64,000 bases of DNA, from assembly GCA_902500715.1 (NCBI GenBank), contig CABVRO010000005.1, positions 975 to 64,974 on the forward strand. The letters are read 5' to 3'. This DNA is from an uncultured Nitrospira sp. GTDB lineage: Bacteria; Nitrospirota; Nitrospiria; Nitrospirales; Nitrospiraceae. The position numbers were made by a program, and so were the translations under genes. The notes under the pieces are model-generated. The model was given only the letters and a program-made list of their open reading frames with translations, made no database searches and was not told the DNA's origin. Positions within the stretch are counted from its first letter, which is position 1. Each line of letters begins with the position of its first letter. Below, one piece after another: positions 42,524 through 46,678 of the stretch.

Positions 42524-42552
42524 TTGACTTTTTTTGACAGGTTGGCTACCCT
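42524..42552 (+). promoter_or_regulatory. Possible sigma70 promoter (TTGACT-N17-TACCCT) for the repeat-peptide gene
   Basis: 17-bp spacing, about 55 nt upstream of the AAGGAGG RBS/ATG. Confidence 0.5.
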
Positions 42553-42607
42553 CGGCCCGCCCTTGTGGTGGGCACTTATATTCTCAACCTTTCAAGGAGG
42601 GGTTTCC

Positions 42608-42832
42608 ATGAAGCGTGCTCTATTTGCATTCGTAGCGGCAGCCATTCTCGTTGCATTCACCGCCCCGTCTTTCGCCGGCGACGACAAGAAGAAGGAAGAG
42701 AAGAAGGGCGGCCACTTCTCCCAGACCCTCTTCGGCGATGACAAGAAGAAGGAAGAGAAGAAGGGTGGACACCTGTCCCAGACCGTGTTCGGCGAAGAGA
42801 AGAAGAAGGACGAAAAGAAGGGCGGACACTGA
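42608..42832 (+). CDS. Small secreted repeat peptide, 74 aa: signal peptide plus three GD/E-D/E-KKK-E/D-EKKGGH units
   Basis: AAGGAGG RBS, ATG 42608, signal peptide ending SFA, 57-bp DNA repeat units at 42677, 42734 and 42791, and its own terminator. Confidence 0.85.
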   Translation: MKRALFAFVAAAILVAFTAPSFAGDDKKKEEKKGGHFSQTLFGDDKKKEEKKGGHLSQTVFGEEKKKDEKKGGH

Positions 42833-42861
42833 TCCCCGCTTCCGACGTTCTTTCGTAGTCT

Positions 42862-42905
42862 AAATTGGCCCGCGACTCCGGATGCCGGCGCGGGCCAATT
42901 TTTTT
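42862..42905 (+). terminator. Intrinsic terminator after the repeat-peptide gene
   Basis: AAATTGGCCCGCG / CGCGGGCCAATTT stem followed by a T-run. Confidence 0.8.
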
Positions 42906-42979
42906 GCCTCGTGCGGCTCCCGCTCCCTCTCTCCTCCGCTTCATTGACCCGTTCAATCGGTGCGTGATACGGTTCGCGC

Positions 42980-45900
42980 ATGACCAGCACAACCGCCGGC
43001 CGCGAGCCGAATCGCCTCATACAGCAGACCAGTCCCTATCTCCTGCAACATGCCTATAACCCGGTGGATTGGTATCCCTGGGGGCCGGAGGCCTTGGCCC
43101 GGGCGGCGCAGCTGAATCGACCGATTCTGCTCTCCATCGGCTATTCCTCCTGCCACTGGTGTCACGTCATGGAGCGGGAATCGTTTGAGAACGGGGCGAT
43201 CGCCGGACTGATGAATCGACATTTTGTCTGCATCAAAGTCGATCGCGAGGAGCGGCCCGATCTGGATGAGATCTACATGCAGGCCACGCTGGCGCTGAAC
43301 CGGAATCAGGGCGGCTGGCCAATGACCGTGTTCCTCACCCCCGATCAGAAACCGTTTTTTGCCGGGACCTATTTCCCGCCTGAGGATCGATGGGGCCGTC
43401 CGGGCTTCCCCGCCCTGCTGAAGAAAATTGCCGAGTACTGGGAGAAGGACCAGGCCGGCGTCGTCGCGCAAGCGGCCACCCTCACGGCGCGCCTCCAGGA
43501 CGGCAGTCATGCCCCTTCCCCGACCACGGTCGGCGAAGCCGAACTCGACATGGCTGTGACCCAGTTTGCGGAGGACTTCGATGCCAAGCTCGGAGGATTC
43601 GGCGGCGCCCCGAAGTTCCCCCCGGCCACCGGGCTCTCGCTGTTGCTCCATTGTTATCACCGCACCAAGGATCCGCAGCCCCTCACGATGGTCCGTACCA
43701 CGCTGGATGCCATGGCGGCTGGCGGGATCTACGATCAGATCGGGGGCGGCTTCGCGCGGTACTCCACCGACGATCGGTGGCTGGTGCCCCATTTCGAGAA
43801 GATGCTGTACGACAACGCCCTGTTGGCTCGCGTCTATGTCGAAGCGTTTCAAGTGACCGGAGATCACAACTACCGTCGCGTGACCTGTGAGACTCTCGAC
43901 TATATTCTGAAGGAAATGACGTCACCCGAGGGCGGGTTCTATTCCGCAACCGATGCCGACTCCGAAGGGGTGGAGGGGAAATTCTTCGTCTGGACCCCGG
44001 AGGAAATTCGCGCGGTGCTTTCGAACGAAGAGGATGTGCGTCGGATCTGCGCCTATTACGATGTCACACCGGGTGGCAACTGGGAGCACAAGAATGTGCT
44101 GCATACGGCCAAGCCCGTCGCGTCGGTGGCGAAAGAGTTGGGGCTGACCGTCGAGGACCTGCAAGAGACCATCGAGCGGGTGAAGCCGTTGCTCTATGAG
44201 GCGCGCGCGAAACGGGTCCCACCCGGACTCGATGACAAGGTCATCACGGCCTGGAACGGAATGATGATCAGCGCCATGGCGGAAGCCGGGGGGGTGTTCG
44301 ACATGCCGCGGTACCGGGCCGCTGCCGAACGCGCCTGTGAGTTTCTCCTGACCACGCTCTCCAAGCCGGATGGACGACTCCTGCGGACTTATCGCGCCGG
44401 CACGGCTCACCTGGATGCCTATCTCGAAGACTATGCCTACTTTGCCGAAGGCTTAATCGACACCTATGAAGCAGGCGGCAACGAGCGGTACCTGTCTGCA
44501 GCGATGCGGCTCGCGGAGCAGATCCTGGCGGATTTTTCCGAGGGTCAACAGGGCGGGTTCTTCACGACGGCCACGGGCCACGAAGCCCTGATCATGCGCA
44601 GTCGTGAAGGTCCTGACGGAGCCACCCCGAGCGGAAATGCCGTGGCGGCCTCGGCGCTGGCCAGATTGTCCTACCACTTCGGGCGGGAAGATTTCCGGCA
44701 GGCGGCTGCGGCGGCTGTGCGCGCCTACGGTCGCCAGATCGCCCGCTACCCGCGGGCATTCGCGAAGAGTCTGATCGTCGTCGATTTGTTGACCAGCGGG
44801 CCGGTAGAAATTGCCGTCGTCGGGACATCCGGCGAACCCAACACCGTCGCGTTGCGCGCGGCAGTCAGCCGGACCTACATTCCGAATCGTGTCATCGCCT
44901 ATCGCGAGTCGCAGCAGCCCGAACCGACCCATCCGCTCTTGCAGGGGAAGGCCCTGGTCGGCGGCAAGGCGGCGTTGTATGTCTGCCGGAATTTTTCCTG
45001 CCGACAACCGATCACCGATCCCGCGGATCTCCCTGCTCTGCTCGATCCGTCGCAAAAAGCTGCATCGCCGTCGACCGTGCCCGAACAAAAGGTCTTGAGC
45101 GGAAATTTGTATCCGGGGGCCGCGACTGTTCAAGGCACGGCCGGTTACGCGGCCAGGAAGATCCACGATGCCACCGGGGCCGGCTCGTTGGCGAACGGGT
45201 TCGGGCCGTTCGGGGCGACAGGACTGACGGTCAGCCGTCTCGGATTCGGCACGTACCGGGTCGGGCAACGGGAAGCGGAGCATCGAGAGGCCTTGATCAA
45301 GGCGATTCGCTCGGGCTGCAACCTGATCGACACTTCGACGAATTACATGGACGGCGAGAGCGAGCAGGTGGTCGGTTCGGTCCTCCAGCAATTGGTCCGT
45401 GCCGGTGAAGTGACCCGCGAGGAAATCATCGTCGTGTCGAAGATCGGTTATGTGCAGGGTCAGAATCTGGCCCTGGCCAAAACCCGGGAGAAATCCGGCA
45501 AGACCTATCCGGACATGGTGAAGTATGGCGACGATGTCTGGCACTGCATTCATCCGGAGTTTCTGGCGGATCAATTGACGCTGTCCCTGGATCGACTGGG
45601 GTTGGCGACGTTGGATGTCTGTTTGCTCCACAACCCGGAGTATTTCCTGTCCCATGCGACCCGGCTCGGCACCGGTGAGCAGCGAGAGCTGTCTGCGCTG
45701 CGCGATGAATTTTATGCGCGACTGCAATTGGCATTCGAGTATTGCGAGCGGCAGGTCGAAACAGGCCGGCTGCGCGGCTATGGCGTGTCGTCCAATACGT
45801 CCACGGCGTCTCCGGATGAACCCGGCGCCACGTCGTTGTCCAGCATGATTGAAGCCGCGAAGGCGGCGGCGAAGAACGTCGGAGCGGCCGATCACCATTT

Positions 45901-46678
45901 CACGGTCTTGCAGTGCCCGATGAATGTGCACGAGTCCGGCGCGGTTCTGATCAAGAATACGGGACAGGGCAACGGCAGCACGGTGCTGGATGAAGCCGTG
46001 AGGAACGGTGTCGCGGTGCTCGTGAATCGTCCGCTGAACGCCATGCCGGCCCAGCGCGGCGGCGTGGTGCGATTGGCCGATGTGCCCGTGCCGGCGCCAG
46101 AGGCGGAATTCGAGACGCAGCGACAGAGGGTTGCTCTCTTGGAAGAAGAGTATCGAAGGGATCTCGCGCCGGCGGTGGCCCATAGCGGCCAAGGCATGCT
46201 TCCCGCGGACTTTTTCCGATGGGCCGACGAACTCAACCGCATCCGCACGCAGGTGCAGGGCTTGGAACATTGGGAGCAAATCGAAACGCAGATGATCGCA
46301 CCCCACGTCAACCAGGTGCTTCGCACGCTTTCCGAAGCGTTTACAGGTACCGTGGCGGAGCAGTGGGAAGCCTGGCGTGACCGGTACGTACCGGAACTCC
46401 TCGCGCTCCTGCGAACGCTGCATCGGGAAGCCAGCGAGCGGAGCCGTCTGCGCGCGGAAGAGCTGCATCGAAGCATCGATCCGCTGTTGCCAGAACCGAG
46501 ACGGAAGGCGAGCTTGTCGCAGAAGGCGCTGTGGATTCTCTCCAGCACTGCGGGTGTGACGTCAGTGCTCAACGGAATGCGCACGCCGACCTACGTGGAC
46601 GACGCGCTGCAGATCCTGCGGTGGGAGTCGTTGTCGGATGCGCGACGCGTATACGATCGCTGTGCCGAGAAGAAGTAA
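42980..46678 (+). CDS. Fusion of a DUF255/YyaL-type thioredoxin plus alpha/alpha-barrel protein and a C-terminal aldo/keto reductase
   Basis: NRL....[28 protein letters not shown] and [10 protein letters not shown] (YyaL). Then [20 protein letters not shown] and LLHNP (AKR tetrad D, Y, K, H). Confidence 0.88.

Follow-up and report, generated by a model that had tools for sequence, protein, structure and literature searches.

What is the short repeat-containing gene at positions 42608–42832 of a 64,000-nucleotide stretch from an uncultured Nitrospira sp. (assembly GCA_902500715.1, contig CABVRO010000005.1), and what might its product do? The whole stretch is called the window below. An initial annotation, made from the letters of the window, had described a stand-alone secreted peptide with three repeat units and proposed that cleavage of these units releases metal-binding peptides. 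We found that the gene belongs to a family which is restricted to part of the Nitrospiraceae and is a core gene there. Its product is best described, on the basis of composition and structure prediction, as an intrinsically disordered strong polyampholyte with two small hydrophobic-aromatic patches. Tentatively, and with slightly less than even confidence, we propose from its sequence features that the peptide acts intact, in bulk, in the periplasm.

The gene, its product and its family

The reading frame was found as described in the initial annotation, with a signal peptide followed by three units:

42608–42832, + strand: coding sequence of 74 amino acids plus stop (ATG at 42608, TGA at 42830–42832), with 1057 homologs and a transcribed ortholog in N. 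moscoviensis
42608–42676, + strand: Sec signal peptide MKRALFAFVAAAILVAFTAPSFA for signal peptidase I (SPase I), n-h-c layout, cleavage site predicted
42677–42733, + strand: unit 1, GDDKKKEEKKGGH plus patch FSQTLF
42734–42790, + strand: unit 2, GDDKKKEEKKGGH plus patch LSQTVF
42791–42829, + strand: unit 3, GEEKKKDEKKGGH, a C-terminal charged block without a patch

The full layout is MKRALFAFVAAAILVAFTAPSFA, then GDDKKKEEKKGGH-FSQTLF-GDDKKKEEKKGGH-LSQTVF-GEEKKKDEKKGGH. Tandem Repeats Finder gave a 57-bp period with 2.7 copies and 86% matches across 42676–42830. Each pair of units differed at five codons, of which two or three were synonymous and the others exchanged F/L, L/V or D/E. The codon-by-codon comparison hence bears out the earlier claim that the 57-bp units differ at synonymous or conservative positions. 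Likewise supported is the description of the product as a repeat peptide that stands alone, is exported via Sec and is under selection for its amino acid sequence.

The gene is not a chance open reading frame (ORF), because it has 1057 homologs, a syntenic position in other species and a transcribed ortholog in N. moscoviensis. The true start is the ATG at 42608, and a 102-amino-acid ORF starting with TTG at 42524 is an artefact of the ORF listing. The long ORFs on the other strand or in another frame (42592–43020 and 42620–42829 on the – strand, 42651–42863 on the + strand) are side effects of the purine-rich repeat. Among the database ‘homologs’, several (P0013, P0128, P0155 and P0055) were frameshifted reads of this repeat.

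The word-indexed search yielded the 1057 homologs at lengths of 52–117 amino acids, and all named ones came from Nitrospira or Nitrospiraceae. An exhaustive representative search returned only 55 clusters among 1.84 billion representatives. A family profile built from 50 members matched in 313 of 371 genomes of the Nitrospiraceae (200 of 224 high-quality ones), covering 16 of 39 genera. It matched in none of ~20 genomes from sister families of the same order, and three marginal matches occurred among ~250 genomes sampled outside the Nitrospiraceae. The best 80 loci in named genomes were all assigned to Nitrospira, Nitrospiraceae or Nitrospirales, including the complete Ca. N. defluvii chromosome and comammox bins. 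The repeat number varied, with two units in close relatives at the same locus and three to four in others. Neither the window protein nor the 50 aligned members had a match in Pfam, NCBIfam or PDB. An identity as RcnB, a JGI label on 2 of 120 listed homologs, was rejected, as there was no match to the RcnB models of Pfam or NCBIfam.

The signal peptide consists of MKR, a 14-residue hydrophobic core and TAPSFA, with S at –3 and A at –1. The n-h-c layout and the small residues at –3 and –1 agree with Sec export and SPase I cleavage. AlphaFold predicted a helix at residues 4–16. Across the 50 aligned members, F22 and A23 were invariant, and S18, A19 and P20 were more than 90% conserved. We infer from these features that the product is exported via Sec and trimmed after SFA. 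The predicted mature N-terminus is G-D-D in the window protein and G-E/D-E/D in the family, and not X-X-H. The window signal peptide contains no twin-arginine motif. A lipobox (L-x-x-C) was also lacking, with no Cys in the window protein and 0.0% Cys in 132 mature sequences, and the match of the window protein to LPAM_1 was far under its cut-off. The initial annotation had noted that the spacers end in xF before G and had read this as an echo of SFA-G. As a signal-peptidase site this fails, because Phe would be at –1, and to our knowledge, SPase I does not accept Phe there.

The mature part of the family comprises two to four charged blocks, [GD][DE][DE]KKK[DE]EKKGG, parted by short patches. 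The last charged block never bears a hydrophobic patch. The patch is preceded by His in 78% and by K, Q, Y or N otherwise, ends in F/Y in 96% and is followed by Gly in 90%. H-hydrophobic-[FY]-G is the best-conserved feature of the mature part. The patches are specific to their position: the first is mostly VLVY, VVVY or VVVF, and the second is mostly ADTF, MDTF or VVF. In the window’s genus, FSQTLF comes first and LSQTVF second. Because the two spacers are position-specific, the arrangement points to an ordered intact protein rather than to identical cores.

The composition was determined for 132 distinct mature sequences: K 31.7%, G 17.9%, E 16.2% and D 10.9%, with Arg, Cys and Trp absent. 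At least one GGH was present in 114 of these (86%). Of the 18 without GGH, 13 had no His at all. KKGGH is the commonest junction of the family, and the window protein has Gly-Gly-His three times, each internal or C-terminal. The C-terminal residue was Lys in 91 sequences (69%) and His in 36 (27%), and GGH was the C-terminal tripeptide in 38 of ~160 sequences. A free C-terminal GGH is not a conserved product, because only 27% of the members end in His.

The mature chain of the window protein has 51 amino acids, a mass of 5744 Da, an isoelectric point of 9.2 and a grand average of hydropathy (GRAVY) of –2.03. The charged fraction is 0.53, and kappa is 0.045, i.e. Lys and Asp/Glu are well mixed; Arg, Cys and Trp are absent. 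With the 50-sequence alignment, AlphaFold2 gave a predicted local distance difference test score of 54, with values near 50 in the mature part and no secondary structure beyond residue 16. Hydrophilins are operationally defined by more than 6% Gly and a hydrophilicity index above 1. The mature part lies within these composition thresholds (17.6% Gly, GRAVY –2.03).

Paralogs and their expression

The number of copies per genome ranged from one to five and was usually two to three, at conserved loci. Two of these loci have the following gene order:

Locus A (window copy): malic enzyme, peptide, fusion of DUF255 and aldo-keto reductase (DUF255-AKR), OmpA
Locus B: uracil-DNA glycosylase (UDG, Mug), peptide, NUDIX, gcvT, FKBP, FIST

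At locus C, the peptide gene lies next to a gene for a regulator-like protein. Loci A and B are shared by N. lenta, N. defluvii-type genomes and N. moscoviensis. The second copy of the window genome is located on contig 71 (L003 7199–7423), between the Mug/UDG gene and NUDIX-gcvT.

Both copies of the window genome encode identical mature peptides. Their DNA differed at only 4 of 153 nt in the mature part, as opposed to 26 of 69 nt in the signal peptide. The flanks are unrelated, and so is the terminator of the second copy. Unit 3 has GED in both N. defluvii copies versus GEE in both copies of the window genome and of strain UBC2. The FSQTLF and LSQTVF patches occur in both copies of the window’s genus, and the VV-type patches occur in both N. 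lenta copies. Such patterns suggest that the mature part has repeatedly undergone gene conversion between the two loci.

The expression signals named in the initial annotation (a candidate promoter, an AAGGAGG ribosome-binding site and a strong terminator) were all present at the window locus:

42524–42552, + strand: putative sigma-70-like promoter, –35 TTGACT (42524–42529), 17-nt spacer, –10 TACCCT (42547–42552)
42555–42573, + strand: hairpin at the predicted mRNA 5′ end, GCCCGCC-CTTGT-GGTGGGC, with a 7-bp stem
42594–42600, + strand: ribosome-binding site AAGGAGG, 7 nt upstream of the ATG
42862–42907, + strand: intrinsic terminator, a long GC-rich hairpin plus T run

The candidate promoter was missed by a simple consensus scan, and its –10 element matches three of six positions only. 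The pattern TTGACW-N16-19-TANNNT was kept in 14 of 15 locus-A orthologs, as far as N. lenta and N. moscoviensis. A sigma-54 promoter was rejected for the window copy: the GG/GC spacing is off by one, and the locus-A orthologs share the TTGACW pattern instead. A hairpin was found at the same place in every locus-A lineage with differing sequence, e.g. GCCTG..CAGGC in N. lenta types and GTTTACCC..GGGTAAAC in L079. It would be a 5′-terminal stabilising stem-loop of the mRNA. A strong Shine-Dalgarno-like site (AAGGAGG, AGGAGG, GGAGG or GGGGGAG) was found by a regular expression in 62 of 96 family genes. The terminator hairpin (42862–42901) has 13+4 bp, followed by a T run, with –31 kcal/mol and z = –2.2.

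The upstream regions (150 nt) of 95 distinct family loci (L001–L109) were surveyed. The sigma-54 motif GGCA-N6-TTGC[TA] was found in 76 of 80 non-A loci, 66–101 nt before the ATG (median: 78 nt). Shuffled sets contained 0.6 motifs each, and one motif was found on the opposite strand. In the non-A copies, the motif is followed by a hairpin of the GTGCC...GGCAC type. Copy B of the window genome has the sigma-54-type motif GGCAAGGACTTTGCT (L003 7128–7142), and such a motif is also present upstream of NITMOv2_0235. An identical product would accordingly come from sigma-70-type and from activator-dependent sigma-54 promoters, and this would mean both a constitutive and a regulated supply.

Expression was assessed for the three paralogs of N. 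moscoviensis (G422, NZ_CP011801, single contig of 4,589,485 bp), where the profile matches coincided exactly with the gene coordinates. The reads per kilobase per million mapped reads (RPKM) and the ranks among 4391 transcripts were taken from Table S1 of Mundinger et al. (PMC6606698):

NITMOv2_2496, divergent third paralog: RPKM 16048, 164x the median, rank 3 of 4391
NITMOv2_0235, sigma-54 copy: RPKM 1834, 18.8x the median, rank 55 of 4391
NITMOv2_2099, locus A, ortholog of the window gene: RPKM 1698, 17x the median, rank 62 of 4391

In a second table, the paralogs had transcript ranks of 4, 71 and 76 (Lawson et al. 2021, Table S1, PMC8407350). The expression data refer to normal growth in a chemostat. 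The Rfam search of the window locus and the three paralog loci gave no match, i.e. no riboswitch or known small RNA was found behind the high RNA level.

The gene next to NITMOv2_2496 is NITMOv2_2497 (L109 ~1860–2760, + strand), which is divergent from it and has transcript rank 43. It contains an H-x3-C-x2-C motif (WHLALCVDCLH), zinc anti-sigma-like, after a sigma region-4-like stretch. Judging from these motifs, NITMOv2_2497 is a possible local regulator.

Directly downstream of the window gene lies the DUF255 (Thioredox_DsbH) and aldo-keto reductase fusion of 1232 amino acids (42980–46678, + strand). The peptide gene has the same neighbour in N. lenta, in N. moscoviensis and in N. defluvii-type genomes. 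A functional link to the peptide is not evident, because a strong terminator lies in between and the fusion has no signal peptide. A role of the window gene as a Lys-rich leader peptide for the downstream gene is ruled out by the conserved signal peptide, the strong terminator and a paralog that is convergent with its neighbours. No protease, transporter, maturation, secretion, receptor or immunity gene was found beside the gene at the three conserved loci.

Proposed role and alternatives

Acting intact in the periplasm, the peptide would be a highly soluble polyampholyte similar to hydrophilins and dehydrins. The two non-identical H-hydrophobic-aromatic-G patches would make transient contacts, which could shield or space envelope components. 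The Gly-Gly-His junctions could weakly bind Cu(II), Ni(II) or protons in a buffering manner, and this would require no further proteolysis. That the dosage of the peptide matters is counted in support of this role. Among the alternatives given in the initial annotation, a charged periplasmic protein was the best fit.

Several points weigh against this role. The function itself is purely inferred from composition. The Pfam models for dehydrins (PF00257) and the KGG repeat (PF10685) gave no match to the window protein at E≤10 or to the 50 members at E≤0.01. His is replaceable at 10–20% of sites, which weakens the metal- or proton-buffering part. The expression evidence comes from another genus of the family, that of N. 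moscoviensis. Moreover, not a single peptide of any of the three N. moscoviensis paralogs was detected in whole-cell and membrane proteomes (LysC, trypsin, chymotrypsin and combinations; PMC8407350). Possible reasons are release from the cell, cleavage, modification, binding to insoluble material or poor translation. The absence is notable, because the expected tryptic peptides, e.g. GGHVVAQMSDDK, are of measurable size. As evidence it is weak, because several other tiny top-transcribed ORFs were equally undetected. Three further tiny ‘uncharacterized proteins’ with top transcripts had zero peptides, namely, NITMOv2_0031 (rank 1), NITMOv2_0852 (rank 3) and NITMOv2_1482 (rank 7) (PMC8407350). 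They could represent RNAs that are not annotated, or additional small proteins that escaped detection.

We also checked the relation to nitrite oxidoreductase (NXR). The transcript levels of the N. moscoviensis paralogs are in the range of nxrA/nxrB/nxrC. In two genera, at least 20 genomes have the locus-B paralog at a distance of 9–14 kb from a copy of nxrB, and a single genome of a third genus has the two 22 kb apart. This proximity is seen, for instance, in N. moscoviensis (231668 vs 243298; L112 230000–249500), G278, G121, G049 and G194. About ten unrelated genes lie in between, and the proximity is treated as a conserved neighbourhood and not as an operon. NxrB (more than 98% identical among the best matches listed) was found in 27 of 39 genera, and the peptide was not detected in at least 11 of these. 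This phyletic pattern rules out that the peptide is an obligatory NXR subunit. For the nxrAB loci of Nitrospira, control by sigma-54-dependent regulators was reported (PMC6606698). The sequence upstream of the main N. moscoviensis nxrA, GGCAT-N5-TTGTA, is only sigma-54-like. NxrB was not found in the window’s own assembly, which is probably due to an assembly gap at the repeated nxr operons. Contig 71 of the window genome ends (18074) about where nxr is expected.

An accessory role in the envelope or for an enzyme would give the patches a more specific task: docking to an abundant periplasmic partner (NXR arrays or an outer-membrane or peptidoglycan component), with the charged blocks as spacers. 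The C-terminal Lys, present in 69% of the members, could serve as a tether, as in Braun’s lipoprotein. The NXR-range transcript levels, the neighbourhood with nxrB, the sigma-54 promoters of most non-A copies, given the reported sigma-54-dependent regulation of nxrAB, and the conserved, position-specific patches agree with such a role. We still regard it as unlikely: at least 11 genera have NxrB and no detectable peptide copy, ~10 unrelated genes separate the paralog from nxr, the window protein ends in His and not Lys, there is no lipobox and the peptide was not found in the membrane proteome. Alternatively, the peptide could leave the cell and be a component of the matrix or of aggregates, or a signal, either whole or as units of 17–19 residues, with the cut behind the aromatic residue. 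In favour of an extracellular location are the growth of Nitrospira in dense microcolonies, the conserved [FY]-G junctions and the absence from cell-pellet proteomes despite top-rank mRNA. A signal with such high transcript levels would be unusual, and no dedicated secretion, receptor or immunity gene lies nearby. As the gene is also a core gene, syntenic in hundreds of species, and the sequence is near-neutral and very hydrophilic, we consider this location rather improbable. A bacteriocin or antimicrobial peptide was rejected on similar grounds (core gene at syntenic sites, near neutral, no immunity or export genes).

The idea of the initial annotation was that of a multi-core precursor: a periplasmic endoprotease would cut after KK and release, in bulk, GGH-initiated peptides with the amino-terminal Cu(II)- and Ni(II)-binding (ATCUN) motif. 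Free Gly-Gly-His would arise as well, and the outcome would be a ribosomally made chelator that holds these metals tightly. KKGGH being the commonest junction, GGH being present in 114 of 132 sequences, the very high transcription and a unit number that varies as in multi-core precursors all speak for it. Neither the intact protein nor the tryptic peptides to be expected from it have ever been detected, which fits processing or loss from the cell; such non-detection is common for other tiny N. moscoviensis ORFs, too. The idea was weakened by the family data, and we now consider it very unlikely. The product of signal peptidase starts with G-D/E-D/E and is not an ATCUN peptide, C-terminal GGH occurs in only 27% of the members, 13 of 132 sequences have no His and the His position accepts K, Q, Y or N. 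Moreover, the patches are not interchangeable between positions, and the three conserved loci have no protease or transporter gene. The abundant RNA might also be the functional molecule itself, e.g. a purine-rich GGA-containing sponge with a secondary ORF. The mRNA is very abundant while the protein is undetected, and synonymous sites are almost frozen between paralogs (4 of 153 nt). Gene conversion and AAG codon bias explain the frozen sites, however. The differences between units and species are synonymous or conservative at the protein level, the signal peptide and frame are kept over 16 genera while the DNA diverges, and there is no Rfam match; an RNA function is hence extremely improbable. 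Finally, as five protease-specific proteomes contained no trace of the protein despite ranks of 4, 71 and 76, it is conceivable that the product is processed, modified or insoluble. There is a small chance that the peptide forms a new periplasmic material, either as a pool of KK-cleaved GGH metallophores or as a disordered sticker-and-spacer peptide. In the latter version, the 19-residue units may combine an aromatic-Gly sticker with a Lys/Glu spacer, formally like FG-nucleoporins. In the periplasm, which is unusually wide in Nitrospira, a peptide of this kind could assemble into a gel or condensate and organise NXR, with which it would be sigma-54 co-regulated.

Significance and comparison with known systems

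As far as literature searches show, the family, its repeat grammar, the paralog structure, the concerted evolution and the dual sigma-factor wiring have not been described before. One family member had already been remarked on for its expression. The searches on ATCUN in Nitrospira and on KKGGH returned nothing relevant. In most soils, fresh waters and wastewater plants, nitrite is oxidised by Nitrospira. The family is found in ~85–90% of the genomes of the main genera and is transcribed at the level of the NXR genes in N. moscoviensis, yet it has no name, family model or proposed function. Its paralogs, two to three in number, occupy ancient positions, evolve in concert and are connected to two different sigma factors. 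The family is a concrete experimental target for periplasmic physiology, metal handling and NXR organisation in genetically hard organisms.

With ATCUN peptides (NH2-Xaa-Xaa-His, such as Gly-Gly-His or albumin DAHK), the window protein shares the tripeptide Gly-Gly-His. Its mature N-terminus is Gly-Asp-Asp, however, and an ATCUN site would need an extra cleavage. In the prion protein, Cu(II) is bound at the His96 site (GGGTH-SQW) via the imidazole and the preceding backbone amides. The internal Gly-Gly-His of the window protein resembles this site, by analogy only.

SmbP of Nitrosomonas is a His-rich helical repeat protein, and a homolog is annotated in N. moscoviensis (NITMOv2_3596). SmbP is a small, abundant periplasmic repeat protein of a nitrifier, as the Nitrospira peptides would be, and its metal binding is based on His. 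Unlike SmbP, the Nitrospira family has one His per 19 residues, is predicted to be disordered and has no sequence match to SmbP in the family libraries. The SmbP of N. moscoviensis had transcript rank 62, and nine peptides were detected (Table S1, PMC8407350).

Multi-core precursors (cyanobactin PatE and fungal Kex2-processed proteins) are similar in their near-identical tandem units, the variable unit number and the dibasic residues at the proposed cut. The differences are a Sec signal peptide in place of a recognition leader, units that are position-specific and a neighbourhood without PatA/PatG-type genes. Braun’s lipoprotein (Lpp) is a tiny envelope protein, as the Nitrospira peptides would be, and is likewise encoded by one of the highest-expressed genes; most family members end in Lys. 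In contrast to Lpp, the peptides have neither a lipobox nor Cys nor a coiled coil, and His is the last residue of the window copy. A peptidoglycan link of the Nitrospira family is pure conjecture.

Hydrophilins and proteins of the late embryogenesis abundant type include the plant dehydrins with Lys-rich K-segments as well as E. coli YciG and B. subtilis GsiB with KGG repeats. The Nitrospira peptides resemble them in being small, extremely hydrophilic and, by prediction, disordered, in their Lys/Glu-rich repeats with a KKGG motif and in their very high expression. The His residues of dehydrins bind Cu, Ni and Zn. In contrast to hydrophilins and dehydrins, the Nitrospira family is Sec-exported and not cytoplasmic, has hydrophobic-aromatic patches and is expressed during normal chemostat growth and not under stress only. 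Hence, the nearest kind is that of the hydrophilin-type disordered proteins, though the Nitrospira peptides are exported and unrelated to them in sequence.

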